From positions 137,340-201,339 of the forward strand of contig JBEKXF010000001.1 in assembly GCA_049512315.1 (NCBI GenBank): 64,000 bases of DNA, in the 5' to 3' direction. This document shows, in pieces, positions 4,639-45,338 of the stretch (position 1 is its first letter; every line of letters starts with the position of its first letter). The notes under the pieces were generated by a model, which saw only the letters and a list, made by a program, of their open reading frames with translations, ran no database searches and was not told where the DNA came from. The translations under genes and the position numbers were made by a program. This DNA is from Candidatus Aminicenantales bacterium. Its GTDB lineage: Bacteria; Acidobacteriota; Aminicenantia; Aminicenantales; Saccharicenantaceae.

Positions 4639-4666
4639 TTGACAGCCGGAACAGCTCTGGTATAAT
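4639..4666 (+). promoter_or_regulatory. Sigma70-type promoter TTGACA-N16-TATAAT upstream of the DsrM-like gene
   Basis: Exact consensus -35 (4639-4644) and -10 (4661-4666) hexamers with a 16-nt spacer, about 70 nt upstream of the ATG at 4738. Confidence 0.5.
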
Positions 4667-4737
4667 AAATATTTTCAGGCCGCCCGAATTTTTGGATTCC
4701 GGCAAGCCCGTAATCATCAGGAATTGAAAGACCTCCC

Positions 4738-5442
4738 ATGAGTAAGCTCCTGAGCGCCCTCGAGAATGAGGTGCAAATCGGCGCTCTTCTGTTCATGACC
4801 GTCGTCTACACGCTCCGCCTGATCTGGATTTTTAGGTTCAAATCCGGCCGGGAGCGGACCACCGCGGCGGGAAGCGAGGCGGCCGGGATCAGTTATTCTC
4901 TAATGAACGTCGCCATGCCGTGGGCCATGGAGTCGACACGGAAGAGGCCTTGGTTTTACGCCCAATTCGTGATCTTCCACCTCGGAGTCGTGGCCGCCAT
5001 CACCGCCACGTTCATCATTCCCTATGCCCCGGCCCTATTTAAGGTCAAGGCCGTTGTCCGGCTGTTCCAGGTCATCATCGGCGCCGCCTGCCTCGTTGGC
5101 CTCCTCCGCTTCATCCGGCGGCTGAGGAACCCGACTCTCCGGCTCATCAGCACGGCCGATGATTATCTCTCGCTGGCTTTGATGATCCTGTTCTTCGCCG
5201 CCGGCGTTCTGGCCGTCCCGAACGAATACCGGAAAGCGGAGTGGCCCATTGCCATTTTCTTCGGCCTCACCGCATTTTTCCTCATCTACGTTCCTTTCTC
5301 CAAGATCTGCCACTATCTCTATTATCCCTTCAGCCGCTATTTCTTGGGGCGGACCCTGGGTCATCGGGGGGCGATGCCTCCCGGGATGAAAGGTAAGCGC
5401 ACTTGCCTTCCCTCCAGCCCCGACGGAGGGGGATCGCGATGA
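4738..5442 (+). CDS. NarI/DsrM/HdrE-family membrane b-type cytochrome subunit (DsrM-like)
   Basis: Five predicted TM helices, His in TM2 (VIFHLGV), and a C-terminal PFSR motif shared with nitrate reductase gamma / DsrM proteins. Confidence 0.7.
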   Translation: MSKLLSALENEVQIGALLFMTVVYTLRLIWIFRFKSGRERTTAAGSEAAGISYSLMNVAMPWAMESTRKRPWFYAQFVIFHLGVVAAITATFIIPYAPALFKVKAVVRLFQVIIGAACLVGLLRFIRRLRNPTLRLISTADDYLSLALMILFFAAGVLAVPNEYRKAEWPIAIFFGLTAFFLIYVPFSKICHYLYYPFSRYFLGRTLGHRGAMPPGMKGKRTCLPSSPDGGGSR

Positions 5443-6857
5443 AACGAAGGAAAGCTGCAGTCTCGGGGATCGCGGACGCCCCACTGGATACTAGATCCCA
5501 GGAAAGGGCCCGCCTGGACAGGATCCCTTCGCTCGCCCCCGACCGTCTCCAAACGTACGATGCAAGCGCCGACAACGTCGGGAGGTTTCTCCGCTTGCTG
5601 GGCGAACGGATCACCCGGCCCCTGGCCGTGTCCCTGACCGCCTGTGTCCATTGCGGGCTGTGTGCCGACTCGTGCCACTATTTCCTGGCCAGGCCAGACG
5701 ATCCGACCATGACTCCTGTCTACAAGGCCGACCAGATCCGTCGCATCTTCAAAAGACATCTGGACTGGACGGGCCGGGTCGTCCCCTGGTGGGTCCACGC
5801 GGGCTCGCCTCGAAATGACGAAGATCTCAACCGTCTGAAGAATATCGTGTTCGGTACCTGCAGCGCCTGCCGCCGTTGCACACTCAACTGTCCCATGGGA
5901 GTGGATACGGGGCTCCTTGTCCGGTTCACGCGGGGACTCTTGACCGAGGTGGGGATCGTCCCGGAAGGCGTTTTCAACGTCAGCCGGGACCAATGGGAGA
6001 CGGGAAACCAGATGGCGGTCACGGAGGAAGAATATCTGGAGACCCTTCAGTGGATGGAGGACGAGCTCCGGACCGAGTTCGGGACGCCGGAGGTGGACAT
6101 CCCCGTCGACCGCCCGGACTGCGATGTCCTTTACACGATCAATCCCCGGGAGGTCAAGTTCGACCCGCGGTCCATCGCCAATGCGGCCAGGGTTTTCTTT
6201 GTCGCCGGGGAGAAATGGACCCTGCCGAAATGGGGCTGGGACCAGACGAACTTCGGCCTCTTTTCCGGGGACGACAAGCTCGGGGCCTATGTGGCCCGAA
6301 ATGTCTACGAAGCCGCGGAACGGCTCCGCGCCAAGAGAATCGTCATTTCCGAGTGCGGGCACGGCTACCGGTCTACCCGATGGGAGGGTTATAACTGGGC
6401 TGGATACGACCAGAAGGTCCCGACCGAATCGGTGGTCGTGACCCTCCAGCGATATCTCCGGGAAGGCCGCATCCGGGTCGATCCCGCCAGAAATCCCGAT
6501 CCCGTGACCTTTCATGATTCCTGCAACATCGCCCGCTCGGGAGATCTCGTCGAAGAGCCCCGATGGGTCCTCCGACGGGTTGTCACGGATTTCCGCGAGA
6601 TGCATCCCAATCGCCGGGAGAATTTATGCTGCACGGGCGGGGGAGGCCTTCTCTCCATGGCGGAATACAGGCCCCTCCGGCTTGAGGTCGCCAAGATCAA
6701 GGCCGAGCAGCTCAAGGCCACGGGAGCCAAGCTCGTCTGCACGATGTGTCACAACTGCATCGACGGGCTGACGGATGTCATCAAGCATTACAAGCTGGAG
6801 ATGAAAGTCGTCCAGGTCTTGGACCTGGTCTCGAACGCCCTCGTGATCCCGGAGTAG
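5439..6857 (+). CDS. Iron-sulfur CCG-domain protein of the DsrK/HdrD type
   Basis: Start overlaps the upstream stop (ATGA) and a GGAGGGGGA RBS precedes it. Two ferredoxin motifs (CVHCGLCADSC, CSACRRCTLNC) followed by Cys-rich CCG-type motifs (NLCCTGGGG). Confidence 0.75.
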   Translation: MKRRKAAVSGIADAPLDTRSQERARLDRIPSLAPDRLQTYDASADNVGRFLRLLGERITRPLAVSLTACVHCGLCADSCHYFLARPDDPTMTPVYKADQIRRIFKRHLDWTGRVVPWWVHAGSPRNDEDLNRLKNIVFGTCSACRRCTLNCPMGVDTGLLVRFTRGLLTEVGIVPEGVFNVSRDQWETGNQMAVTEEEYLETLQWMEDELRTEFGTPEVDIPVDRPDCDVLYTINPREVKFDPRSIANAARVFFVAGEKWTLPKWGWDQTNFGLFSGDDKLGAYVARNVYEAAERLRAKRIVISECGHGYRSTRWEGYNWAGYDQKVPTESVVVTLQRYLREGRIRVDPARNPDPVTFHDSCNIARSGDLVEEPRWVLRRVVTDFREMHPNRRENLCCTGGGGLLSMAEYRPLRLEVAKIKAEQLKATGAKLVCTMCHNCIDGLTDVIKHYKLEMKVVQVLDLVSNALVIPE

Positions 6858-6902
6858 AAATCGGGGCAACGGACGACGAGAAAATATTCGGAGGAGAGCG
6901 AT

Positions 6903-7223
6903 ATGCCGTTTATCGAAAAGGATGGCAAGAAGATCGAAGTCAACGAAGAAGGATTCCTGGCCCGCCCCGGCGAATGGGATGAGCAGGCGGCCGGCATCCT
7001 GGCGAAAATCGAGGAGGGCCTCGACGAAATGACTGCCGAACATTGGGCCGTCGTGAATTATATCCGGGGCTACTACCTTGAAAAAGGGCTGGCTCCCATG
7101 GTCCGCAAGATCTGCCAGACCACGGGCTTTCCGCTCAAGCACATCTATGAGCTGTTTCCGTCGGGGCCGGCCAAGGGGGCCTGCAAGGTGGCCGGGCTTC
7201 CTAAGCCCGACGGCTGCGTCTGA
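6903..7223 (+). CDS. dsrC: DsrC-family protein with both C-terminal cysteines (true DsrC type, not TusE)
   Basis: The C-terminus ACKVAGLPKPDGCV matches the DsrC swinging arm (CysA penultimate and CysB 10 residues upstream). GGAGGAG RBS upstream. Confidence 0.8.
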   Translation: MPFIEKDGKKIEVNEEGFLARPGEWDEQAAGILAKIEEGLDEMTAEHWAVVNYIRGYYLEKGLAPMVRKICQTTGFPLKHIYELFPSGPAKGACKVAGLPKPDGCV

Positions 7224-7232
7224 CGTTCAGGA

Positions 7233-8399
7233 TTATCCCTTTTTCTTTTTCAGCCCGGCGATTTCGCCGACGGCCCGGACGGCGGCCGCGATGTGCTCCT
7301 CGGTGTTGAAGGGGCCGATGCCGAACCTCACGGCGCCGTGGATCCCGGCGATGCCCAGCTGCTCGTGGACCAGGGGGGCGCAATGGAGCCCCGTCCGGGC
7401 GGCGATGTTGTAGTCGACGTCGAGCATCGTGCCCACGTCGGCGGCGACCATGCCGTCGACGTTGAAGGCCAGGACGCTGATGTGATCGGCGAGGTCTTCC
7501 AGGCAGTAGAGCGTCACCCCAGGGATCTCCCGCAGCCCGTCGCGGAGCTTGCGCGCAAGCCCCATTTCATGCTCTTGGAGGGTTTTCAGGCCCTTGGCCA
7601 GGATCCACTTCAAACCCGCGTTCAATCCGGCGATTCCCATAATATTCGGAGTCCCGTATTCGAGCCGGTACGGATATTCCTCGAGATGGGTCCGGACCGC
7701 GGACCGGACGCCCGTCCCGCCGGCCCTCGTGTGCCGGACCTCGATCCCCTCCCGGACGTAGAGACCGCCGATGCCGGTGGGGCCGAGAAGCGACTTGTGG
7801 CCGGTGAAAGCGACGACGTCCAGGAACTGGTCTTCCATGTCGATCGGGACCTTGCCCGCGGACTGCGACGCGTCAATGGCGAAGGGGATCCCGGCTTCCC
7901 GGCAGAGCCTTCCGATCTCACGGATCGGCTGGACGGTCCCGATGACATTCGAGGCATGGTTGACGATGACCAGGCGGGTCGTCGTCCGGAACCTTTTCCG
8001 GATCTCCGCGGGGTCGACGAAGCCCGCGCCGTCAAACGGAACGTGGTCGACCGCGACTCCCGCGAGTGACTGGTGATAGAGGGGACGGAGAACGGAATTG
8101 TGCTCGATCATCGTCGTGATGGCGTGTTCGCCGGGCTTGAGCATTCCGAAGATGATGAGGTTGAGGGCGTCCGTGGAGTTGTAGGAGAAGCAGAGCCGGT
8201 TGGGGTCCGTGCCGTTGAAGAACTGCGTCATCATCTTCCGCGTCGCCTCGACGACTTCGCCGGCCTCCAAACAGAGGTCATATCCGGATCGCCCCGGGTT
8301 GACTCCGAAATTCCTGTAGAAGTGGTCCATGAAGGTGTAGACCTCTTCGGGTTTCGGGAAGGACGTCGCCCCGTTATCCAGGAAGATCAGCTTGCTCAT
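7233..8399 (-). CDS. Class V aminotransferase-fold cysteine desulfurase (SufS/CsdA-like)
   Basis: PLP-lysine motif HKSLLGPTGIGGLYV and active-site Cys loop RTGLHCAP. Start chosen at MSKLIFLDNG with a GGAGG RBS 5 nt upstream. The longer ORF-track start lacks an RBS. Confidence 0.8.
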   Translation of the reverse strand: MSKLIFLDNGATSFPKPEEVYTFMDHFYRNFGVNPGRSGYDLCLEAGEVVEATRKMMTQFFNGTDPNRLCFSYNSTDALNLIIFGMLKPGEHAITTMIEHNSVLRPLYHQSLAGVAVDHVPFDGAGFVDPAEIRKRFRTTTRLVIVNHASNVIGTVQPIREIGRLCREAGIPFAIDASQSAGKVPIDMEDQFLDVVAFTGHKSLLGPTGIGGLYVREGIEVRHTRAGGTGVRSAVRTHLEEYPYRLEYGTPNIMGIAGLNAGLKWILAKGLKTLQEHEMGLARKLRDGLREIPGVTLYCLEDLADHISVLAFNVDGMVAADVGTMLDVDYNIAARTGLHCAPLVHEQLGIAGIHGAVRFGIGPFNTEEHIAAAVRAVGEIAGLKKKKG

Positions 8400-30760: not shown

Positions 30761-30845
30761 GGGCAGGTGGCGGAATTGGCAGACGCGCTAGGCTTAGGAC
30801 CTAGTTCCTGATGAAGGAGTGCGGGTTCGATTCCCGCCCTGCCTA
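30761..30845 (+). tRNA. tRNA-Leu (anticodon UAG)
   Basis: Manual fold. Acceptor stem GGGCAGG/CCTGCCT, D-arm, anticodon stem CTAGG/CCTAG with loop CTTAGGA, a long variable arm, T-arm GCGGG-TTCGATT-CCCGC and discriminator A. CCA is not encoded. Confidence 0.85.
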
Positions 30846-34841: not shown

Positions 34842-36134
34842 GTGAGGTCAATGATGAAAGAGTACAATCTGGTCGAGCTGGAGGAAAAAGAGCTCTCCGC
34901 CCTGAAGAAGCTCGCGGTCAGCATGGGGATCGAGGAGCCCGAAATCGAGGAAACCAGCAAGCACCAGCTGATCTTTAAGGTCCTCGAGGCCCAGGCCAAG
35001 AGGCAGGGAATGCTGTTCTCGGAAGGCGTTCTCGAGTGCCTCGAGGACGGCTTCGGGTTCCTGAGGGCCCCGGAGTTCAGCTACCTGCCGAGCCAGGACG
35101 ACATCTATGTTTCGCCTTCCCAGATCCGGAAATTCCAGCTCCGGACCGGGGACACGATCTCGGGCCACGTCCGGGCCCCGAAAAACGGGGAAAAATACTT
35201 CGCCCTGATCAAGATCGAGGCCGTCAACTTCATGCACCCGGACGTCATCATCGAGGAAAGGCGGAACGTCATCTTCGAAAGCCTGACGCCGCTCTATCCA
35301 TTCGAGATGATCAAGCTCCAGGACGGGAACCCGAAGAACATGAACGCCCGGGTCATGGAGCTCCTGACGCCCATCGGCAAAGGCCAGCGCGGGCTCATCG
35401 TGTCGCCGCCGAGGGCCGGCAAAACGACCATTCTCAAGACGATCGCCAAGTCCATCGAGAAAAACCACCCCGAGATCTTCCTGATCGTCCTCCTGGTTGC
35501 CGAGCGGCCGGAGGAAGTGACGGATTTCAAGAGGAGCGTCAACGGGGAGGTCGTCGCCTCGACGTTCGACGAGCCGCCGACCCGGAACGCCCAGGTCGCG
35601 AACATCGTCCTCGAGAAGGCCAAGAGGCTCGTCGAGATCAAGCGGGACGTCGTTATCCTGCTCGACTCGATCACCCGGCTGGCCAGGGCCCACAACGCGA
35701 TCGTCCCGCCCTCGGGGAAGGTCCTATCGGGCGGCATCGACGCCAACGCCCTTCACAAGCCGAAGAAGTTCTTCGGGTCGGCCCGCAAGGTCGAGGAAGG
35801 CGGGAGCCTGACCATCCTGGCCACGGCCCTGGTGGACACGGGAAGCCGGATGGACGAGGTTATTTTCGAGGAGTTCAAGGGGACGGGCAACATGGAGATC
35901 AACCTCGACCGGAGGCTCGTCGACAAGAGGGTTTTCCCGGCCATCGACATCAGCCGGTCCGGGACCCGGAAAGAGGAGCTCCTGATCGAGGAGGCGGACC
36001 TCAACCGGATCTGGGTCCTACGGAAGGTCCTCAGCCAGATGAACGAGGTCGAGGCCGTGGAACTCTTGATCGACAAGCTGAGCAAGACGAAGACCAACCA
36101 GGAGTTCATGAGCGCCATGAGCAAGGCCCTGTAA
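34842..36134 (+). CDS. rho: Transcription termination factor Rho
   Basis: N-terminal OB/RNA-binding region ([14 protein letters not shown]), Walker [11 protein letters not shown]-loop and R-loop. The start may instead be 34851 or 34854. Confidence 0.95.
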
Positions 36135-36156
36135 AAGAGCCAGAGACGGGGAACGA

Positions 36157-36192
36157 GGCCGGGCGGCCTAAGCCGCGCCGGCCTCTTTTTTT
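36157..36192 (+). terminator. Rho-independent terminator after rho
   Basis: GC-rich hairpin GGCCGGGCGGC-ctaa-GCCGCGCCGGCC followed by TCTTTTTTT. Confidence 0.65.
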
Positions 36193-36591
36193 GGCCAAAA
36201 AGCGATATAGACGCGGGCGTCGGAGTAGTTTTTGGGATCGCCTTGAAGAAGGATCGGTTCAGAAAGCGGACGATAATGGGAAAAGTCATGAAGCGGTTGC
36301 AAGGGACATTCTTTATAGAGGGGCAAAGAATTTCCACATTTGCACAAGGATTGGTCAGCGGGGATATTCACAGGCTGTGAAGAATTCTAAGTGAATGTAA
36401 TAGAAATAGATAAAGTGGGCTGGAATAATGAGTCGCATAAGGATTATTATGTCAACTAATATCAGGATCTGCCCAGAGGCAACAAATGGCCCGCCGATCG
36501 GCCGCTTTTCCCCATATGAAGGCTTGCGCGAGGGTTCCTTGGGGGGTGAGATTTGTAATGAAAAACCTTCCCGGAGCTGGACCTTACGACC

Positions 36592-37389
36592 TTACCCTTC
36601 TTTGGCTTTCAGTCTGCGGATGATGTCCTCGAGGACTTCGATAATCTCGCTTTGGGAAATAGATTGCTTCTTGAACTCCAGCCTAAGTCTGAACCTGTCC
36701 GTGTCTTCGGGGACGAAATTATAGACGTAATATTTGAGCTTTTTCAGCTTCCCCTTGAGGTGCTTAGAAAGGTCGCGGGTATCTTCTCGGGTCAGATGGC
36801 GCTCGGCGATCTCCTTGACGAGCTTGAGCATGTCTTCGTCGGTCTTCTGTTTGGCGATCTCGATGATCGTGCCCCGGCTGAATGCTCCGGAGGACTTGAT
36901 GATCTCCCGGACAGACGCCGGGATCCTCGAGATCGAGAGTATTTCGGTGATCGTCGAACGGGCTTTCCCGATCTTTTCGGAGACCTGTTGGTGGTTGTAC
37001 CCGTAAAGGTCGATCAGGGATTGGAGGCCGTCGGATTCCTCGAAGAGGTCAAGGTCTTTCCGCTGAAGGTTCTCGATCAGGGCGATCTCCATGGCCTCGT
37101 TTTCCTCGACGTCCATCTCGATGCACGGGATCTCCTTGAGCCCGATATTCCTCGAGGCCAGAAACCGCCGCTCGCCGGCGATGATCTCAAACCTGTTCCC
37201 TTTGGAGCGGACAAGGATGGGCTCGAGGACACCCTTGCTCCGGATGGATTCCATGAGCTCCTGGATGTTGCCGAGCTCGCTCCGGGCCTGATGGGGGTTC
37301 GGGTCGATATGCTCGAGCGGGATCATCCGGATGCGGGGTCCGAGCGACCTGGACGAAAGCAGGTCGACAAAGTGGCCATCATGCCTCAT
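36592..37389 (-). CDS. parB: Chromosome partitioning protein ParB
   Basis: ParB box (GERRFLASR), HTH and C-terminal dimerisation region. Start at MRHDGHF. The longer ORF-track N-terminus is Arg/Ser-rich, low-complexity, and overlaps parA. Confidence 0.85.
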   Translation of the reverse strand: MRHDGHFVDLLSSRSLGPRIRMIPLEHIDPNPHQARSELGNIQELMESIRSKGVLEPILVRSKGNRFEIIAGERRFLASRNIGLKEIPCIEMDVEENEAMEIALIENLQRKDLDLFEESDGLQSLIDLYGYNHQQVSEKIGKARSTITEILSISRIPASVREIIKSSGAFSRGTIIEIAKQKTDEDMLKLVKEIAERHLTREDTRDLSKHLKGKLKKLKYYVYNFVPEDTDRFRLRLEFKKQSISQSEIIEVLEDIIRRLKAKEG

Positions 37390-37417
37390 CGTGACGGTTT
37401 CAGGAAGACCGGATCGC

Positions 37418-38182
37418 TTAGCTTTTTGCACGTTCCAATATCTCCTCGGCGACTTTTCGGTATTGCTCCGCCCCGACGGATTCGGGAGCATATGTGAAGA
37501 TCGATTCCTTGTAGGCCGGGCTCTCTTCGAGCTTGACGCTCTTCGAGATAAATGTCTTGAAGACCTTCTTTCCGAAGACGCGGCGGATCCTCTGCACGAC
37601 ATCCCGCCCGAGGTTCGTCCTCCTGTCGTGAAGAGTGACCAGGACCCCGATGATCTTCAGGCCGGGGTTGGCGATCCGGCGGACTTTCTCGATGGTCTCT
37701 AGGAGGTCATCCGTGCCCTCGAGAGCCAGATATGAGGATTGGATCGGGATCAGGATGGCCGACGCGGCGACGAGGGCGTTCATGGTGATCAAGCCCAGGG
37801 TCGGCGGGGTGTCGATGAAGATGAACTGGTATTTGTGCTTGATGGATTCGAGGGCGTCCTTCAGGCGGAAATGAGCGTCGATCTCGCCGAGAAGGGATGG
37901 CTCCAGCTTGGCCATGGAGATCTTGGCCATCGCCATGTCCAGGCCAGGAACCGTTGAACGGACGATAATGTTATCCATCTTCTCGTGTTTGTTCATTAGG
38001 ACATCGTAGAGCGATTTTTCATAGCTCGACGGGTCGGCCACGGTCGAGATCGTGCTGTGGGCCTGAGGGTCCATGTCTATGAGGAGGACCTTCTTCCCCA
38101 TCAAAGCCAGGGCAGATGAAATGTTGATGGATGTCGTGGTTTTCCCTACGCCGCCTTTCTGGTTCGTGATAGCGATGATCAA
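37418..38182 (-). CDS. parA: Chromosome partitioning ATPase ParA/Soj
   Basis: Deviant Walker A NQKGGVGKTT. Putative TTG start giving (M)IIAITNQKGG, preceded by GGAGGGAGAG at a 6-nt spacing. A GTG two codons upstream is an alternative. Confidence 0.8.
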   Translation of the reverse strand: MIIAITNQKGGVGKTTTSINISSALALMGKKVLLIDMDPQAHSTISTVADPSSYEKSLYDVLMNKHEKMDNIIVRSTVPGLDMAMAKISMAKLEPSLLGEIDAHFRLKDALESIKHKYQFIFIDTPPTLGLITMNALVAASAILIPIQSSYLALEGTDDLLETIEKVRRIANPGLKIIGVLVTLHDRRTNLGRDVVQRIRRVFGKKVFKTFISKSVKLEESPAYKESIFTYAPESVGAEQYRKVAEEILERAKS

Positions 38183-38222
38183 GAGCCTCTCTCCCTCCAC
38201 GACGGATTGAAACAAGATTACA

Positions 38223-38251
38223 TTTATAATAAAAGAGGACTTGGAATGCAA
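38223..38251 (-). promoter_or_regulatory. Candidate parAB promoter TTGCAT-N17-TATAAA (minus strand)
   Basis: Minus-strand -35 at 38251-38246 and -10 at 38228-38223, about 40 nt upstream of the parA TTG. Confidence 0.4.
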
Positions 38252-38275
38252 GCGAATTCTAGTTCTTGGACAGGA

Positions 38276-38297
38276 AAATGTCGGCACGCCGACATTT
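38276..38297. repeat. Perfect 10-2-10 inverted repeat AAATGTCGGC-AC-GCCGACATTT
   Basis: Exact reverse-complement arms. Lies about 25 nt upstream of the parAB -35 element. Confidence 0.6.
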
Positions 38298-38503
38298 ATT
38301 GTAAATATTTGAATATAAATGAGTAAAACAAATGTCCAGAATCCGGTCGGAAGTCTTGGTCCGGCCTTTTTGCGACCGGGCGAGGTCGCGGCTAAATAAC
38401 GGTAGAATTAGTGGTAGCTGACGGATTGGTTTCGTGGGCGGGGGTGAATTAGGAAAAGAAGAAAAACGTGGCTGAATAAGATCGGGCGTTTGGCGACGGT
38501 TGA

Positions 38504-38519
38504 TTTGCCGAAATCGGCA
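38504..38519. repeat. Perfect 7-2-7 inverted repeat TTGCCGA-AA-TCGGCAA
   Basis: Exact reverse-complement arms within the AT-rich non-coding region. Confidence 0.5.
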
Positions 38520-39070
38520 AAGGCTGTCCGGCGTCGGTCGATGGTAGGGCTTGCTTCTGTCATGTGAAGACGGGCCGAAAAAAAGGCGGCTCAAGACCCG
38601 TGATATGAATTCAAAGGTGCGAAATCTCGATCAAACTGAGCCTGCCCTCCCCTCTTTTTAAAGCTGGTGATCTTGCGTCGGCATAACCGGGTTGCCCATT
38701 GCCCGTTAGGCTTGATAGGCGGATAGACAATCGAAAAGGGTAAGCCGGGGAGACGGCTCGATGACAATTCTATAAGGAATAGCGATTGCGTAAAATTAGA
38801 TTTCGAATGGAGGTGATGAATTAATAATCTCTTATCTAGCTGATAATAAATAATATACTAAGATGTCACACCGGCTGGACAAGAGAGTCAGGAGAGATAG
38901 CTCGGGAAGCTCAATGCGTCGTTCCGGAGGGAGGTTTGGGCGGACGTCAAGCACGGGTTGGCGTCCATGATGCCGCTCGGCGCCAAGGGCTGTCGCGTTT
39001 TTGCGGAGCTCGGAAAATATTCCTCACGCTTTATCCCGAAAATCCCGTACAATGAGGCCTGGCCGAGAGC

Positions 39071-40480
39071 ATGAGCCCGGAAACATCCGAACCAAAATTT
39101 CTCAGGCGGCTGAACCTCATGGACACGGCCTTCCTCGTCGTCGGTGCCGTCATCGGGTCGGGGATCTTCATGACGCCGGGCCTGATCGCCGCCGGCGTCC
39201 CCTCCCCCGGCCTCCTGCTCGTCGTTTGGCTGGCCGGAGGCCTGGTCACTCTCTGCGGGGCACTCTCCTTCGCCGAGCTCGGGGCGATGTACCCGCAGGC
39301 CGGGGGCCAGTACGTCTATCTCCGCGAAGCGTACGGACCTGGCGCCGCCTTCCTTTTCGGCTGGGGCTTTTTCGGGTTCATCATGTGTGGCGGCCTGGCG
39401 GCCCTGGCCGTCGGCTTCGCCGAATTCTTCGGCTCCTTCGTTCCCCGCCTGTCCACGGGGGTCGAGATCGCCCATTTTTCGGCCTTAGGTTTTTCCTATT
39501 CGCTATCGGCCGGGCAGCTGGTCGCCGCCGCCTCTATCGTCCTCTTGACCGTCATCAACTCGTTCGGGATCCGGGCGGGCGTCGCCGTCCAGAACCTCCT
39601 GACCGTCTTCCGGATCGGGGCGGTCGGGGCGCTCGTTGTCCTGGGGCTCGTTTTTGGGACCAAGTCGGGCGGGACGAACTTCCACCCGCTCTTCCCCGGA
39701 GGGTTGGAATTCCCCGGCCTCCTGAAACCGCTCGGCCTGGCCCTGGTCGCGGTTTTCTGGACCTATGACGGCTGGTATTCCGTCAACTGCACAGCCGAAG
39801 AGATCCGGGACCCGGAGAAAAATATTCCCCGGGGGCTGGCCCTCGGCGTCGCCGGGGTCACGGTCTTATATGTCTCGGTCAATCTCGTCTACCTTCTGGC
39901 CCTTCCGCTGGAGAAGCTGAAGGGGGTCGTGCGGGTCGGGGAACTCGTCACGACGGCCCTTTTCGGCGGCGGCGCGGGAGCGGCGATCGCGGCCGTGATC
40001 ATGGTCTCGGTCTTCGGCTGCCTGAACGCCAACCTGCTTTTCGGGCCGCGGGTCTATTACGCCATGGCCAAGGACGGGAGCTTTTTCCGGTCCATGGCCC
40101 GCCTCAGCCCGCGCACCAGAGTCCCGACGCGCGCCCTCTGGGGCCAGGCCGCCTGGTCCGCCGTGCTCTGCCTGTCGGGGACCTACCAGGCCCTGTACGA
40201 GTACATGGTCTTCGCCCTGCTCGTCTTCTTCGCGGCGACGGGCCTGGCCGTCATTGTCCTCCGCCGCCGGCGACCCGAAGCCAGCCGCCCCTACCGGACG
40301 TGGGGATATCCTATTATTCCTATGATATTTGTAGTAATTTGCCTGGCGATCTTCATCAACATTCTCCTTGCCCAACCCCTGAAGTCCGCAGCGGGCCTGG
40401 CCCTGCTCGGGGCCGGCCTGCCGGCCTTTCTGATCTGGCGGAGGCGCCGTCCGGCGGATGGCGGGAACCTCAAAAAATGA
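39071..40480 (+). CDS. APC-superfamily amino acid/amine permease
   Basis: 469 aa with 12 predicted TM helices. The N-terminal FLVVGAVIGSGIFMTPG motif is typical of APC transporters. Confidence 0.8.
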   Translation: MSPETSEPKFLRRLNLMDTAFLVVGAVIGSGIFMTPGLIAAGVPSPGLLLVVWLAGGLVTLCGALSFAELGAMYPQAGGQYVYLREAYGPGAAFLFGWGFFGFIMCGGLAALAVGFAEFFGSFVPRLSTGVEIAHFSALGFSYSLSAGQLVAAASIVLLTVINSFGIRAGVAVQNLLTVFRIGAVGALVVLGLVFGTKSGGTNFHPLFPGGLEFPGLLKPLGLALVAVFWTYDGWYSVNCTAEEIRDPEKNIPRGLALGVAGVTVLYVSVNLVYLLALPLEKLKGVVRVGELVTTALFGGGAGAAIAAVIMVSVFGCLNANLLFGPRVYYAMAKDGSFFRSMARLSPRTRVPTRALWGQAAWSAVLCLSGTYQALYEYMVFALLVFFAATGLAVIVLRRRRPEASRPYRTWGYPIIPMIFVVICLAIFINILLAQPLKSAAGLALLGAGLPAFLIWRRRRPADGGNLKK

Positions 40481-40536
40481 TAGGCAAGGCCGGAGATTTG
40501 GTTTAAAATGAGGCTTCTCGTGGCTGGCTGCGGAAG

Positions 40537-42315
40537 ATGACGGACGTGACGTATTCCCTCGAGATCCTCCCTGACGGGACCAAGGTCCGGGTCCGGGCCG
40601 GGGAGCTCCTGGCCGACGCCCTGACGAGGGTCGGCATCCCTCTCAGCCTCTATTGCCACAAGCGGGGCGTCTGCGGGAAATGCGCCGTCCGGATCCGGGC
40701 GGGGCTCCTTCCCCTTCTCGAGGCCCCGGAGAAGGCCGTCCTCGAAAAACGAGGCCTCAGCCCCGACCACCGGCTCGCCTGCCGGTTCGCCGTCCGGGGC
40801 GATATGGCCGTGGAAATCCTCCCGGAATCGCGCCTGGGCAAGGTGGCCGTCCTCGAGACCGGCCTTTCCGCCCCCGTCACCCTCGACCCCCAAATCAAGA
40901 AGCTCGCCGTGACCCTGGGAAAGCCGCCTCTATCCGCCCCGGCGGCCGTGACGGAGAGCCTGGAATCCCTCCTCCGGACGCCCGGCCTGGGCTTCCCTCT
41001 TCCAGCCCTGAGGGGCCTCAAGGGTCTGGACTCTGGGTCCCCCCGGACGGTCACGGCCGTCCTCTACGGCGAGCGGGAGGTTGTTGATGTCGAGCCCGGC
41101 GATACCTCCGGGCGGGCCTTCGGCCTGGCGGTCGACATCGGCACGAGCACGGTCGTCGTCGAGCTCGTCGACCTGGTCACGGGAAAATGCGCCGGCCGGG
41201 CTTCGGCCCTCAACAGCCAGGCCTCCTACGGCGCCGACGTCGTCTCGAGGATCGCCTATGCTTTCCAGGAACCGGACAATCTCAAGCGCCTGAAGAAGTC
41301 CATTGCCCATCTCCTGAACACCCTGGCCGGCGAATTGTTGGAAAAAAGCGCCGTCCCGAGGGAGCGCGTCTACGAGGCTGTCGTCGCCGGAAACACGGCC
41401 ATGAACCACTTCCTTTGCGGCGTGAGCGTGGATCCGCTGGCCTTGTCCCCCTTCCACGCGGTCTTCGCGGCCCTTCCACCCTTCCCCGCCGCCGAGATCG
41501 GCCTCGAGCTCAACCCGGCGGCCCGGGTTTACATCGTCCCCAACATCAAGAGTTTCGTCGGCGGGGACATCACGGCCGGGCTGGCCGCCTGTGCCCTGGC
41601 CGAGAAGCCGGGCCACGCGCTCTTCATCGACATCGGGACCAACGGCGAGATCGTCCTCAAGAAAGGCCAGCAGTTCATGGCCACCTCAACGGCCGCCGGG
41701 CCGGCCTTCGAGGGGATGAGCATCAGCTGCGGCATGCTGGCCGTCGAGGGCGCCGTCCACCGGGCCGAATGGCGGGACGGCTTCCGTCTCCAGACGATGG
41801 GCGGAGGGACGCCACGCGGCCTCTGCGGTACGGGGCTTATCGACGTCCTGGCTGTTGGCCTGGCCCGCGGCCTCATCGGCCGCGACGGCAAGATCGCGGG
41901 CCCGGAGAAAAAGCTCCGGCTGGGCGACAGGCTCAGCCTGACCCAGAACGATATCCGGGAGGTCCAACTGGCCGCGGCTGCGATCAAGACCGGCATCCGG
42001 CTGATGCTCCGGGAATTCCAGGTGCCGCTGAAGGACCTCGACGCCGTGTACATCGCCGGCGCCTTCGGCAACTCGCTCGATATCCGTAACGCCCAGGCCT
42101 TGGGCCTTCTGCCCGGGATCCCGGATCAAAAGATCGCCTTCGTCGGGAACTCGTCGTTGGCCGGGGCGCGCAAGCTCCTTCTCTCGGCCCCCGCGCGGGC
42201 GGCCGCCGAGTCCCTGGCGAAGAGCATCGTGCATGTCTCGCTGGCCACGAGGCCGGATTTCCAGGATGAATTCGTCCGCTGCCTGGAATTCGGGCCCCTG
42301 CCCGGAGGTGGATGA
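40537..42315 (+). CDS. RACo-type reductive activase of corrinoid proteins (N-terminal 2Fe-2S ferredoxin plus ASKHA ATPase domain)
   Basis: Plant-type ferredoxin cysteines (CHKRGVCGKCAV...LAC). ASKHA/actin-fold phosphate motifs (GLAVDIGTSTV, LFIDIGTNGEIV, GAFGN). Confidence 0.75.
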   Translation: MTDVTYSLEILPDGTKVRVRAGELLADALTRVGIPLSLYCHKRGVCGKCAVRIRAGLLPLLEAPEKAVLEKRGLSPDHRLACRFAVRGDMAVEILPESRLGKVAVLETGLSAPVTLDPQIKKLAVTLGKPPLSAPAAVTESLESLLRTPGLGFPLPALRGLKGLDSGSPRTVTAVLYGEREVVDVEPGDTSGRAFGLAVDIGTSTVVVELVDLVTGKCAGRASALNSQASYGADVVSRIAYAFQEPDNLKRLKKSIAHLLNTLAGELLEKSAVPRERVYEAVVAGNTAMNHFLCGVSVDPLALSPFHAVFAALPPFPAAEIGLELNPAARVYIVPNIKSFVGGDITAGLAACALAEKPGHALFIDIGTNGEIVLKKGQQFMATSTAAGPAFEGMSISCGMLAVEGAVHRAEWRDGFRLQTMGGGTPRGLCGTGLIDVLAVGLARGLIGRDGKIAGPEKKLRLGDRLSLTQNDIREVQLAAAAIKTGIRLMLREFQVPLKDLDAVYIAGAFGNSLDIRNAQALGLLPGIPDQKIAFVGNSSLAGARKLLLSAPARAAAESLAKSIVHVSLATRPDFQDEFVRCLEFGPLPGGG

Positions 42316-43205
42316 TGAGCCGTTCGATATTGGACTTGGTCCGTCAAAGGACCGTTCTCCTGGACGGGGCCATGGGCACGGAGCTCATGGCCCGCGGGCT
42401 GCCCCAAGGGACATGCCCCGAATCATGGAACGTCGAGAAGCCCGCGGTCGTCGAGGAGATCCACCGGAGATATTTCGAGGCCGGCTCCGATGTGGTCTCC
42501 ACGAACAGCTTTGGCGGCAGCCGGATCAAGCTTGCCGGCCACGGCTTGGAAGGCCGGACCGCCGAACTAAATCTTGCGGCGGCGCGTCTGGCAAGGGTCG
42601 TCACGCCCGCGGGCAGATATGTGGCCGGGAGCATGGGCCCGACCGGAAAATTCCTCAAGCCCCAAGGCGAATTCGCGGAAGGGGAATTCGAGGCCGTTTT
42701 CGCCGAACAGGCCCGGGCTCTCGCCGACGGCGGGGCGGACGTGCTTCTCATCGAAACCCAGTACGACCTCCGGGAAGCCCTCTGCGCCCTCCGCGGCGCC
42801 CGGCGGAGCTCTCCCCTGTCGGTCTTCGTCACCATGACCTTCAACGCCGTCCCGCGGGGGTATTTCACGCTCATGGGCGATACCGTCGCCCGGTGCATGC
42901 AGGAACTCGAAAAGGAAGGCGCCCGGGCCGTGGGAGCCAACTGCACTCTCAACAGCGAGCAGATGACGGGTCTCGTCAAAGCCATGCGCCAGGAGACACG
43001 CTTGCCTCTGATCGCCCAGGCCAACGCGGGCCAGCCCGTCCTCGGGAGCGACGGCCGCGTGTCCTATTCTCAGGGGCTCGAAGACTACGTCAGGTTCGTT
43101 CCAGACCTCATCCGGGCCGGGGCCAATATTGTCGGCGGCTGCTGCGGCACGAGCCCCGCCTACATCAGGGCCATGGCCGAATCGATCTCAAGGAGGACCG
43201 CATGA
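42312..43205 (+). CDS. Homocysteine-binding-domain S-methyltransferase (MetH Hcy-domain-like, zinc thiol methyltransferase)
   Basis: LLDGAMGTEL, ETNSFGG, LIETQYDL, and the zinc ligands NCTLN plus GGCCGTSPAYI match the MetH N-terminal homocysteine domain. No pterin-binding domain. Confidence 0.75.
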   Translation: MMSRSILDLVRQRTVLLDGAMGTELMARGLPQGTCPESWNVEKPAVVEEIHRRYFEAGSDVVSTNSFGGSRIKLAGHGLEGRTAELNLAAARLARVVTPAGRYVAGSMGPTGKFLKPQGEFAEGEFEAVFAEQARALADGGADVLLIETQYDLREALCALRGARRSSPLSVFVTMTFNAVPRGYFTLMGDTVARCMQELEKEGARAVGANCTLNSEQMTGLVKAMRQETRLPLIAQANAGQPVLGSDGRVSYSQGLEDYVRFVPDLIRAGANIVGGCCGTSPAYIRAMAESISRRTA

Positions 43206-43855
43206 AAAAGGAAGATCTCTATCTGCAGATGAAGAAGGCGATCGTCGAGGGCGACGGCGCCGGGGCCGGGCGGCTGGCCGGCGAGGCCGTCAAGGCGGGC
43301 CTGGACCTTCTCGAAGTCATTGAAAAAGGCTATGTTCCAGGGATCCAGAAGGTCGGCGAGCTGTGGGAGCAGGGAGAGTATTTCCTGCCCGAGCTCATCT
43401 CCAGCGCCGAGGCCATGAAGGCGGCCATGGCCGTCCTCAATCCCGAGCTCCAGCGCTCCCGTCTTCAGGCCAGGACGGCCGGAAAAGTGGTCATCGGGAC
43501 GATCGAGGGGGACATCCACGACATCGGCAAGAACCTCGTGTCCTCCATGCTCCAGGCCGGCGGCTTCGAGGTCTTCGACCTCGGCGCCGACGTCAAGCTC
43601 GAAAGGTTCATTGAAAAGGCCGAGTCCGTCGGCGCGGATTTCATCTGCCTGTCCGCCCTGCTGACGACGACGATGGTCAACCAGAAGCGGTTGGTCGCGC
43701 TCCTCAGGGAGAGAAACCTCAGGGACAGATACAAGGTCCTCGTGGGAGGGGCACCGGCTAGCCAAAGGTGGGCCGACGAGGCGGGTGCCGACGGCTATGC
43801 TGAGAACGCGGTGGCCGCCGTCAAGCTGGCGAAGAGCCTGGCCCCGAAGAGATGA
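43202..43855 (+). CDS. Cobalamin-binding corrinoid protein (B12-binding cap plus Rossmann domain)
   Basis: ATGA overlap with the upstream stop. DxHxxG motif (GDIHDIGKN) and SxL (SALLTTT) of B12-binding domains. 217 aa. Only the C-terminal part of the long ORF-track entry 42233..43855 is real. Confidence 0.8.
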   Translation: MKKEDLYLQMKKAIVEGDGAGAGRLAGEAVKAGLDLLEVIEKGYVPGIQKVGELWEQGEYFLPELISSAEAMKAAMAVLNPELQRSRLQARTAGKVVIGTIEGDIHDIGKNLVSSMLQAGGFEVFDLGADVKLERFIEKAESVGADFICLSALLTTTMVNQKRLVALLRERNLRDRYKVLVGGAPASQRWADEAGADGYAENAVAAVKLAKSLAPKR

Positions 43856-43868
43856 CGGGAGACAGACC

Positions 43869-45338
43869 ATGATCGAGACAAAAAGACCGAAGATCGAGCT
43901 GCTGAGCCCCGAGTTAGTCGAAAAAATCGTCGACGAGGGTCTTGTGCTCCTCGAGAAGCAAGGGGTCTTCGTCGAGAACCAGGAGGCTTTGAAGCTCCTG
44001 GCCGCGGCCGGCGCCCTTGTCGACACGGGCACTGAGAGGGCCCGGCTCGACAGAAAACTCGTCCTGGACTGCCTGTCGTCGACACCGGCCACGATCACGA
44101 TGTACGACCGGGGCGGCGAAAAGTCTTACCTCGTCGGAGGCGACGAGATCCATTTCGACCCGGGCTCGGCGGCCGTCTCCCTCCTCGACCACGAGACCCA
44201 GGAGGAGAGGAAGGCCGTGACGCGGGATCTCGTGGCGTTCTGCCGGCTCGTGGAGACGCTCGAGCACATCCATTTCCAGAGCACGGGACTGATCTCCTCG
44301 GATGTCCCGGCCGCGATCGCCGACTGTTACCGGCTGTACCTGGGACTTCTCCTCTCGTCCAAGCCCATCGTCACGGGGACGTTCCGGGTCGAGAGCTTCA
44401 AGCCCATGAAGGATCTTCTCGTGGGCGTCCGGGGCGGCGAGGCCGAGCTCGCCCGCAAGCCCCTGGCGATCTTCGACGCCTGCCCCTCCCCTCCCCTCAA
44501 ATGGAGCAACCTGACGACCCAGAGTCTGATCGACTCGGCCCGGGCCGGCATCCCCTCGGAGCTCATCTCGATGGGCATGACGGGCGCGACGTCCCTCGCC
44601 ACCATCTCGGGGACCCTGGTCCAGCACGTGGCCGAGAACCTCTGCGGCCTCGTCATCTGCCAGCTGGCCCGGCGTGGCGCCCCGGTCATCTTCGGGGGAT
44701 CGCCCTCGAGCTTCGACATGAGGAAGGGGACGACGCCGATGGGGGCCATCGAGACCATGATGATCGACTCGGCCTATGCCCAGATCGGGAAAAACCTGAG
44801 GCTCCCGACCCATGCGTATATGGCCCTGAGCGACTCCAAGGTCAACGACGCCCAGAGCGGGATCGAGACGGCCCTGGGAGCGGCCCTAGCGGCACTCTCC
44901 GGGATCAACGTCATCTCGGGCCCGGGCATGCTGGACTTCGAGAGCTGCCAGAGCCTCGAGAAGCTGGCCATCGACAACGAGATCTGCGGTATGGTCTACC
45001 GGCTGGTCGCTGGCATCGCCCAGCGGGAAGACCCGATCGCCCTCGACAAATTCGAGGGCTTCAAGGCCGATTTCCAGTTCCTGTCCCATCCCCACACGCG
45101 CCAGTGGTACAGAAAAGAACACACGATGCCGGCACTCATGGACAGGGACCCTTACGAGGCTTGGGTCATGGCCGGCCGCAAGACCGTCCTTGACAAGGCC
45201 CACAAGGACGTGACGGACAGGATCAGGAAATATACCCTCCCTCCGCTTCCCGATGGTTTACGGAAAGAGCTGGAAAGGATCATGACCGGCTACGCCCGGT
45301 CCCAGGGACTTGGAACCCTGCCGAAGACGGGCCTCTAA
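43869..45338 (+). CDS. MttB-superfamily (non-pyrrolysine) substrate:corrinoid methyltransferase (MtgB/MtpB/MtcB-like)
   Basis: GGGAG RBS. 489 aa TIM-barrel MttB-family protein with no in-frame amber codon. Start at MIETKRPKIELLS. Confidence 0.75.
   Translation: MIETKRPKIELLSPELVEKIVDEGLVLLEKQGVFVENQEALKLLAAAGALVDTGTERARLDRKLVLDCLSSTPATITMYDRGGEKSYLVGGDEIHFDPGSAAVSLLDHETQEERKAVTRDLVAFCRLVETLEHIHFQSTGLISSDVPAAIADCYRLYLGLLLSSKPIVTGTFRVESFKPMKDLLVGVRGGEAELARKPLAIFDACPSPPLKWSNLTTQSLIDSARAGIPSELISMGMTGATSLATISGTLVQHVAENLCGLVICQLARRGAPVIFGGSPSSFDMRKGTTPMGAIETMMIDSAYAQIGKNLRLPTHAYMALSDSKVNDAQSGIETALGAALAALSGINVISGPGMLDFESCQSLEKLAIDNEICGMVYRLVAGIAQREDPIALDKFEGFKADFQFLSHPHTRQWYRKEHTMPALMDRDPYEAWVMAGRKTVLDKAHKDVTDRIRKYTLPPLPDGLRKELERIMTGYARSQGLGTLPKTGL

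Follow-up and report, generated by a model that had tools for sequence, protein, structure and literature searches.

The DNA analysed here is a 64,000-nt stretch of Candidatus Aminicenantales bacterium (GenBank assembly GCA_049512315.1, contig JBEKXF010000001.1, positions 137,340 to 201,339 of the forward strand; hereafter the window). It carries a four-gene module for a membrane haem protein (M), a cytoplasmic CCG iron-sulfur protein (K), a two-cysteine DsrC and a cysteine desulfurase (Csd). We propose, tentatively and with slightly less than even confidence, that this module is a quinone-linked reductase of DsrC persulfide, trisulfide or disulfide, which would be fed by cysteine desulfuration and would be independent of DsrAB. 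The gene identities, their motifs, the operon structure and the conserved linkage of the four genes are the observations on which the proposal is built. The features of the module, in coordinates of the window, are as follows.

4639..4666, + strand: sigma-70-type promoter TTGACA-16-TATAAT with a TG extension, 71 nt 5' of the M start codon
4738..5442, + strand: M, 234 aa, five-helix NarI-fold membrane protein of HmcE/TmcC type
5439..6857, + strand: K, 472 aa, cytoplasmic CCG iron-sulfur protein of the HmcF/TmcB/DsrK/HdrD family
6890..6896, + strand: Shine-Dalgarno sequence GGAGGAG of dsrC, inside the 45-nt gap between K and dsrC
6903..7223, + strand: dsrC, 106 aa, with C95 and C105
7233..8399, - strand: Csd, 388 aa, class-V pyridoxal phosphate (PLP) enzyme of the TIGR01977 cysteine desulfurase family

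The proteins of the module and their operon

By its sequence, the 106-aa protein is a genuine two-cysteine DsrC and not a TusE or RspA, as the initial annotation had already claimed from its two diagnostic cysteines. It scores 116.8 bits against Pfam PF04358 (cut-off 24.9) and 101.8 bits against TIGR03342 (cut-off 53.5), and it is 49-51% identical to the solved DsrCs of Pyrobaculum, Desulfomicrobium and Desulfovibrio (PDB 1ji8, 2xsj and 2v4j). The C-terminal tail is ACKVAGLPKPDGCV, in which C95 and C105 are spaced as CX10C. Against the TusE equivalog NF008562 the protein reaches 71.3 bits, where the cut-off is 191, and neither tusBCD nor mnmA lies within the window. The DsrC arm motif used by DiSCo, AGLPKPTG(not N)C[AV], tolerates one mismatch (PMC8477390); the arm AGLPKPDGCV passes it with a single change, T to D (D102, window 7211-7213). 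In the genome scan, the CX10C spacing is kept in all 41 two-cysteine DsrC copies linked to M-K, and 40 of them carry PKPDGCV, the exception (locus L067) having the canonical PKPTGCV. The three DsrC copies checked from a second, distant clade of the module (see below) have PKPDGCV as well. The T-to-D change suggests a partner different from that of canonical DsrC, and PKPDGCV may be a partner-specific signature.

K contains two CX2CX2CX3C [4Fe-4S] motifs (C69/72/75/79 and C141/144/147/151) and one CCG domain. The cysteines of the CCG domain (C362, C397, C398, C437 and C440), both cubane motifs and the stretch E305-C306-G307-H308 are invariant across the K family and the DsrK-like paralogues. 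According to a cryo-electron microscopy preprint on DsrMKJOP, the catalytic signature of DsrK-type enzymes consists of a single non-cubane cluster and the strictly conserved, non-ligating residues Cys329 and His331 in A. fulgidus (bioRxiv 10.64898/2026.08.25.746951). C306 and H308 of K match this dyad. In profile searches K scores highest against HmcF (341 bits), followed by TmcB (328.8) and DsrK (242.8), each time under the equivalog cut-off (750, 735 and 400, respectively). The assignment to a DsrK/HdrD type made in the initial annotation is thus borne out for the CCG domain, the two cubane motifs and the Cys-x-His dyad, but HmcF and TmcB outscore DsrK, and K as judged by these profiles is DsrK-like only in a broad sense. 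The iron-sulfur subunits of lactate, glycolate and glycerol-3-phosphate utilisation are much more remote (LdhH 51.2, GlcF 22.1 and GlpC-type 19.1 bits). The annotation had named a grouping with these subunits as an outcome that would speak against a DsrC relay, and because the HmcF score is far higher, K raises no such objection. A search of the PDB with K gave a single weak match, to the CCG half of 9ojn chain A (E=2.2e-9, K residues 288-467).

M has five predicted transmembrane (TM) helices and resembles E. coli NarI (PDB 3egw_C, E=3e-4), which agrees with its initial description as a NarI/DsrM-type dihaem subunit as far as the fold is concerned. Its profile matches are to HmcE (59.8 bits, E=2.8e-16, over the full length) and TmcC (49.2 bits), below the equivalog cut-offs of 275 and 240; the Pfam family Nitrate_red_gam falls just under its gathering cut-off (21.7 versus 22.9), and the cytob_DsrM model gave no match to M. 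The dihaem part of the description is not supported. M has three histidines, conserved in 72 orthologues to 100% (H81), 100% (H192) and 93% (H209). H81 and H192, which sit where TM2 and TM5 end on the cytoplasmic side, align with the proximal-haem ligands H56 and H205 of NarI, whereas the positions of the distal-haem ligands are occupied by T91 and F174. The four-histidine, two-haem signature of DsrM and NarI is therefore absent from M in the 72-orthologue alignment, while in the same alignment a NarI/DsrM-type paralogue from a Gemmatimonadota locus (L075) keeps all four histidines. Because only the proximal-haem ligand pair is conserved, M is probably monohaem and not dihaem, with a proximal haem b held by H81 and H192. 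M is presumed to be the quinone-interacting anchor, and with a haem on the cytoplasmic side only, the M-K module is probably not electrogenic.

The fourth gene, Csd, encodes a predicted cysteine desulfurase. It passes the cut-off of TIGR01977, the EF2568-type family of group II (415.9 bits versus 377), and the catalytic residues are kept in TGHK (PLP lysine K202) and GLHCA (catalytic C340). An orthologue from a Gemmatimonadota locus (L171) scores 425.5 bits against the same family.

As annotated initially, a consensus promoter stands upstream of the module, and M and K are translationally coupled. The promoter matches the consensus at 12 of 12 positions, and promoter-like sites averaged 1.2 in shuffled sequences. 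About 30 loci of Aminicenantes type keep a TATAAT box 5' of M, together with a -35 box that is complete or partial. The start codon of K overlaps the stop codon of M as ATGA, and no terminator was predicted in the gap between K and dsrC or 3' of dsrC. Given the strong promoter, the co-directional genes, the ATGA coupling and a 45-nt gap with no predicted terminator, M-K-dsrC reads as one operon, as predicted from sequence. The consensus promoter suggests high, constitutive expression, which is commoner in catabolism, although we grade this evidence as weak. The gene calls are supported by the open reading frame (ORF) listing, by the profile searches and by independent calls on identical contigs. 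The desulfurase had been placed head-to-head with the module; it is in fact tail-to-tail with dsrC, the two stop codons (7233 for Csd, 7223 for dsrC) lying 9 nt apart, and it is divergent from folK.

Conservation of the linkage and genomic surroundings

For the synteny scan, K was used to collect 80 loci from one genome per species of the Genome Taxonomy Database (GTDB). M and K are paired wherever both could be called. Aminicenantes-type loci that extend 7 kb or more to either side number 29, and in 22 of these DsrC and a TIGR01977-type desulfurase both lie no further than about 5 kb from M-K. The genes occur in at least four orders, M-K-C-<Csd, C-M-K..<Csd, C-<Csd-M-K and M-K-Csd>-<C, where C is DsrC. 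When neighbouring families are counted, Csd (36 loci) and DsrC (31) exceed folK (25), phoR (23) and cysS (22), and in locus L001 all housekeeping neighbours have been lost while the four module genes still lie within 6 kb. Complete genomes carrying the module include OY969586.1, CP070750.1, CP070772.1, CP070815.1 and CP070827.1; in OY970261.1, M-K has neither DsrC nor Csd inside 10 kb. The four-gene module was also found in Chitinivibrionales (L050), in other Acidobacteriota (L047 and L048), in Mesoterricola (L064) and in further contigs recovered by a metagenome scan with the K of Chitinivibrionales.

Protein searches with K and DsrC of the window returned close homologues only, at least 71% identical, and the few with a named source are from Aminicenantes or Acidobacteriota. 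For K, the named homologues span 71-100% identity, which assigns the window to an Aminicenantes genome. A search with the divergent K of locus L165 revealed a second K clade, about 45% identical, from Phycisphaerae/Planctomycetota (Phycisphaerales), Gemmatimonadota and Ca. Eisenbacteria. Five contexts of this clade were inspected, three from complete genomes, and each has the order DsrC-M-K. The desulfurase is directly convergent in three of the five; in another it lies 5.6 kb off beside a CysK-like gene, and the remaining one has DsrE instead. K, M and Csd of the Gemmatimonadota locus L171 receive NCBIfam assignments identical to those of the window, down to the ranking HmcF > TmcB > DsrK, and the DsrC of a Phycisphaerales locus (L173) falls into the DsrC/TusE family as in the window. 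Between the clades the identities are 50-56% for DsrC, 26-30% for M, 44-46% for K and 52-53% for Csd; all four proteins have co-diverged. As called from these sequences, the module spans at least five phyla, mostly not known as sulfite reducers. Several metagenome-assembled genomes (MAGs) in GTDB titled 'uncultured Eubacteriales bacterium' (L010, L012, L018, L019 and others), and one titled 'Terriglobales', have a K 79-85% identical to that of the window and share its synteny; these NCBI names are probably wrong, and the genomes are likely to be Aminicenantes.

Additional genes accompany the module in some relatives. A CysK-type cysteine synthase adjoins M-K or Csd in at least six loci and in L170, and a second, longer class-V aminotransferase-like gene and an Asp/Glu-type racemase lie near M-K in various Aminicenantes loci. 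Genes for CGGC, DUF134 and NifX-like (Nitro_FeMo-Co) proteins recur near M-K, as do TusA and DsrE2, and TusA/DsrE-family genes join the cluster in L031, L089 and L174. In L001 (16150-18248; = L026) a type III sulfide:quinone reductase (SQR; selenoprotein-subtype model, 613 bits) is encoded about 5 kb from M-K, next to DsrE2 and a one-cysteine, TusE-like DsrC homologue with the tail AAKIAGLKKPEGCV. Together with the Hdr/Qmo-like and MenA-like genes described next, these accessory genes point to sulfane-sulfur traffic linked to quinones. One 623-kb Aminicenantes contig (L089:2315-11413, JGI 3300044800) has a co-directional array running straight into M-K, with genes for DsrE, TusA, an MvhD-like protein, a GltD/HdrA fusion (905 aa), an HdrA-like protein (573 aa), a 79-aa ORF and a QmoC-like protein (229 bits). 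This array would be a NAD(P)H- or flavin-linked extension of the module of Hdr/Qmo type; it was found in the L089 locus only, and we rejected it as a general feature. The left end of L089 holds a partial ORF that translation showed not to be the desulfurase.

A UbiA-family prenyltransferase gene lies directly 5' of M-K in L088 (8171-9118; = L028), and its gene family was clustered in four loci. Haem O synthase, too, is a UbiA-family enzyme. We weighed this function for the L088 gene, haem o having been described in DsrM (bioRxiv 10.64898/2026.08.25.746951), but the best NCBIfam matches are all to MenA and favour a MenA-like protein.

In the window itself, the module is flanked by folK and pho genes, as the initial annotation had it: pstB-phoU, a metallo-beta-lactamase (MBL)-fold hydrolase gene and a PhoB/PhoR-like pair are on the 5' side, and folK, a UPF0102 gene and cysS on the 3' side. 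The two-component pair was considered as a dedicated regulator of the module, which is unlikely, its best matches being PhoB and PhoR/PnpS, its position adjoining pstSCAB-phoU and the module promoter having a full -35 box instead of Pho boxes. Rfam and tRNA scans of the window found no RNA element near the module, the sole match being a tRNA-Leu at 30761-30845. Pfam scans, which covered essentially all large ORFs of the window, otherwise showed housekeeping, glycogen and methyl-transfer genes.

The methyl-transfer genes form a cluster at 39071-45338. It comprises an amino-acid permease (39071-40480), a RACo corrinoid activase (40537-42315), a homocysteine S-methyltransferase-family protein (42312-43205), a B12-binding corrinoid protein with the motif GDIHDIG (about 43.2-43.86 kb, read within a longer ORF of another frame at 42233-43855) and an MttB-family methyltransferase lacking an in-frame stop (43785-45338). 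The cluster resembles a non-pyrrolysine demethylation system for quaternary amines of glycine-betaine type. The region 36100-40000 has a GC content of 0.55-0.57 versus about 0.62 elsewhere. It contains parB (36592-37602, - strand) and parA (37418-38287, - strand), just past rho (34842-36134, + strand), followed by about 0.8 kb in which no gene is convincing (38.3-39.07 kb). Proximity to the origin or insertion of foreign DNA could account for the region.

Proposed reaction and alternative explanations

We propose that the module combines two kinds of known chemistry. By analogy, its front end would be a desulfurase feeding a carrier of the DsrC/TusE family, as in the E. coli relay IscS -> TusA -> TusBCD -> TusE, and its back end would be a membrane reductase of HdrD type that acts on DsrC in the way that DsrMK does and that HmcEF/TmcBC are proposed to do. 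Csd would convert L-cysteine into L-alanine and an enzyme persulfide, from which the sulfane sulfur would pass to Cys105 of DsrC, either directly or via TusA/DsrE where these are encoded. The loaded DsrC, presumably a persulfide, or a trisulfide or disulfide involving Cys95, would then dock on K, whose non-cubane cluster would reduce it to H2S and dithiol DsrC. Electrons would flow in this direction from menaquinol (MKH2) by way of M's one haem and K's two cubane clusters, yielding menaquinone (MK). The net reaction would be Cys + MKH2 -> Ala + H2S + MK, that is, a cysteine-sulfur sink or a release of sulfide tied to the quinone pool, and with such a reaction the module would work without DsrAB. 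For DsrMK(JOP) it is established that menaquinol or menadiol serves as electron donor in the reduction of DsrC trisulfide (PMC10861901; bioRxiv 10.64898/2026.08.25.746951). The idea of a DsrC relay without sulfite reductase, put forward in the initial annotation, gains from the linkage of the four genes over rearrangements and at least five phyla, whereas K turned out nearer to HmcF/TmcB and the 'dihaem' and 'head-to-head' details were mistaken. The most specific form of the proposal is a 'cysteine-sulfur respiration', in which Csd loads the PKPDGCV DsrC, a monohaem HmcEF-like quinol:DsrC-persulfide reductase frees H2S, and cysteine sulfur serves as terminal acceptor or sink; we regard this form as doubtful, albeit plausible enough to be stated.

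Several points weigh against the proposed reaction. Menaquinol (-0.07 V) would have to reduce a persulfide (about -0.2 to -0.27 V), which is energetically unfavourable under standard conditions. M lacks a haem on the periplasmic side, where NarI oxidises quinol, and therefore the reactivity of M with quinol is itself something that we infer. Csd is coupled to dsrC by neighbourhood only, and because the two genes are convergent they are not co-transcribed. A quarter of the Aminicenantes loci (seven of the 29) have M-K with neither DsrC nor Csd within 10 kb, and in Desulfobacterota and some Gemmatimonadota the closest orthologous M-K pairs are without Csd and lie beside response regulators and PAS kinases. 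The negative result for dsrAB covers the 64-kb window, and dsrAB, asr or another siroheme reductase may lie elsewhere in the genome. Finally, the abstract of a study of Lake Towuti MAGs names dsrAB for Desulfobacterota and Aminicenantia (PMC12740246), and an Aminicenantes bin with dsrC but no dsrAB, discussed below, was reported to carry dsrD as well, which encodes a DsrAB activator (PMC6081815).

The last points bear on the explanation that the module belongs to a conventional pathway with its genes split, in which DsrAB or an Asr-type siroheme reductase is encoded elsewhere, M-K-DsrC is the corresponding DsrC-trisulfide reductase, as might be likened to the Gram-positive sulfate reducers with only DsrMK, and Csd is an unrelated neighbour. 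As the initial annotation had stated for the immediate flanks, no dsrAB, apr or sat was found among the large ORFs in Pfam scans of the 64-kb window, beyond which the genome was not scanned. Published Aminicenantes-PK28 and Phycisphaerae-PK28 genomes are without dsr (PMC4897734), and a hot-spring Aminicenantes bin, 92% complete, was described as a fermenter (PMC5459899). In a survey of 950 genomes with dsrAB, the acidobacterial ones described belong to Terriglobia and Thermoanaerobaculia, and the main text does not include Aminicenantes (PMC10591310). For Lake Towuti, the results text, as opposed to the abstract, places aprAB/dsrAB potential only in Desulfobacterota and Nitrospirota, and asr-type genes were reported in some Aminicenantia (PMC12740246). 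An earlier Aminicenantes bin, about 50% complete, contained a two-cysteine dsrC but no dsrAB (PMC6081815); it is the dsrD of this same incomplete bin that keeps the split pathway alive. The split pathway would also account for a DsrC about 50% identical to those of sulfite reducers with both cysteines kept, and the part of the genome covered leaves room for it. It would leave unexplained the linkage to one desulfurase subfamily, and it fits poorly with a module present in five phyla that are mostly not known sulfite reducers, with a K of HmcF/TmcB type, and with the genuine DsrMK-like pairs that occur in L044 and L075 as separate genes alongside the module-type M-K. The T-to-D change in the DsrC arm likewise suggests another partner. 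We consider a split pathway rather unlikely. The proposed independence from DsrAB is based on the 64-kb window and the literature on the lineage.

The remaining alternatives differ in what the module would do with sulfur. It may be assimilatory or homeostatic, turning sulfane sulfur (polysulfide, or persulfides supplied by SQR, TusA or DsrE) into sulfide for CysK, Fe-S clusters and thio-cofactors or, in reverse, passing electrons from thiols or sulfide to quinone. Csd would then act downstream, mobilising sulfur for biosynthesis instead of donating it to DsrC. Thiol oxidation by quinone is energetically downhill, and the CysK-type genes beside M-K or Csd, the SQR, TusE-like protein and DsrE2 of L001 and the recurring CGGC, DUF134 and NifX-like genes all fit this view, as does the presence of the module in Gemmatimonadota and Phycisphaerales of activated sludge, possibly facultative aerobes. 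However, these accessory genes vary and none is present in the window, where Csd is the sole companion of M-K-DsrC and no gene for import or donation of sulfane sulfur was seen; the perfect consensus promoter would also fit catabolism better, weak as this evidence is. An assimilatory or homeostatic role is unlikely in our judgement. A function in thiol-disulfide redox or sensing, with DsrC serving cytoplasmic reductases as a 'bacterial heterodisulfide' whose disulfide is re-reduced by M-K, or with M-K reporting the state of the quinone pool to two-component systems and Csd adjacent through inherited synteny, appears quite improbable. It is suggested by orthologous M-K pairs of Gemmatimonadota, in which K is fused to a receiver domain (C-terminal and of DVU0259 type in L075) and a PAS histidine kinase is next, by Desulfobacterota strain ORM2a, whose M-K is flanked by a response regulator and a kinase, and by the two-component pair directly 5' of the module in the window. 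That pair, however, matches PhoB and PhoR/PnpS beside pstSCAB-phoU, the linkage to Csd outlasts the loss of all housekeeping neighbours and crosses phyla, and the TusA/DsrE neighbours imply a transfer of sulfane sulfur beyond disulfide exchange alone. The selenium counterpart, in which Csd is a selenocysteine lyase, DsrC is loaded with selenium and K, by reducing this, supplies SelD with selenide, is very improbable. The second-best NCBIfam match of Csd is SclA, a characterised selenocysteine lyase of the TIGR01977 family (287 bits in the window, 316 bits in L171), and one relative has a selenoprotein-subtype SQR; yet the SclA scores are far under the cut-off of 525 bits while the general TIGR01977 cut-off is passed, and neither the window nor the inspected loci contain selD, selA or selB.

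L075 (5677-8571 and 10004-11758) also encodes unusual DsrC-family proteins. One is a MerR-type helix-turn-helix (HTH) protein with a C-terminal DsrC domain (382 aa); the other, of 215 aa, contains two DsrC-like stretches, ends in AGLPFYG and has no terminal cysteines. The architectures of this locus hint that this redox pair may be put to regulatory use.

Relation to known systems and implications

The reading that we tentatively favour, a DsrAB-independent reductase of cysteine-derived DsrC species, sets the module between several known systems. With DsrMK(JOP)-DsrC of sulfate and sulfite reducers, which in Gram-positive sulfate reducers and archaea can consist of DsrMK only, it shares a NarI-fold membrane subunit and an HdrD-like cytoplasmic protein that are clustered and translationally coupled, together with two cubane clusters, a single non-cubane CCG cluster, the Cys-x-His dyad and a two-cysteine DsrC as substrate. 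It differs in that no dsrAB, dsrJOP, dsrD, dsrN or dsrT is near the module, K is under the DsrK cut-off (243 versus 400), M is without distal-haem ligands and the DsrC arm has D for T; the conserved partner is a cysteine desulfurase and not a sulfite reductase. HmcEF and TmcCB of Desulfovibrio are the best curated families for M and K, with full-length alignments, and some M-K orthologues have DVU0259-type receiver domains, as found around the tmc operon. The scores of the module are nevertheless far under the equivalog cut-offs, and dsrC is inside the module operon, which holds only M, K and DsrC and has no HmcA/TmcA multihaem cytochrome, HmcBCD or TmcD. No cytochrome c family was found among the window ORFs scanned with Pfam either; with no periplasmic multihaem cytochrome, the electrons would have to come from the quinone pool and not from a periplasmic cytochrome c3.

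HdrDE of Methanosarcina likewise combines a b-type cytochrome anchor with a CCG iron-sulfur subunit and reduces a disulfide, the electrons coming from a membrane quinone-like carrier; HdrD, however, has two non-cubane clusters and acts on CoM-S-S-CoB, whereas the module has one CCG cluster and encodes DsrC in cis. In the E. coli Tus relay (IscS -> TusA -> TusBCD -> TusE -> MnmA) a desulfurase also feeds persulfide to a DsrC/TusE-family carrier. The carrier of the module is a two-cysteine protein with the DsrC-specific arm, tusBCD and mnmA are not nearby, and the end point would be a membrane redox complex instead of a tRNA-modifying enzyme. The sole solved structure matched by the K sequence, the 'iron-sulfur-binding reductase' of PDB 9ojn chain A (1042 aa), is a NarI-HdrD fusion in a single polypeptide, matched only weakly and over K residues 288-467, and this search gave no link to DsrC. 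The parts of the module thus belong to known families, and their combination, namely a PKPDGCV DsrC, a monohaem HmcEF-like pair, a dedicated TIGR01977 desulfurase and conservation across phyla that mostly do not reduce sulfite, appears undescribed in the literature searched, in which no earlier description of a cluster of DsrC, an HdrD-like protein and a cysteine desulfurase was found.

Two-cysteine DsrC commonly serves as a marker for dissimilatory sulfur metabolism that depends on DsrAB. A module of DsrC, an HmcEF-like pair and a desulfurase offers a concrete explanation for the puzzling dsrC found without dsrAB in Aminicenantes (PMC6081815), and it calls for caution, as dsrC or dsrMK-like genes alone are no basis for inferring sulfate or sulfite reduction. 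If 'cysteine-sulfur respiration' is real, dsrC would be an unreliable marker of Dsr-type metabolism. [quoted passage not shown] Its carriers, Aminicenantes, Phycisphaerae, Gemmatimonadota, Eisenbacteria and Chitinivibrionales, are abundant in sediments and sludge, and the module would add a route of sulfide formation from organic sulfur in such anoxic sediments and sludge.

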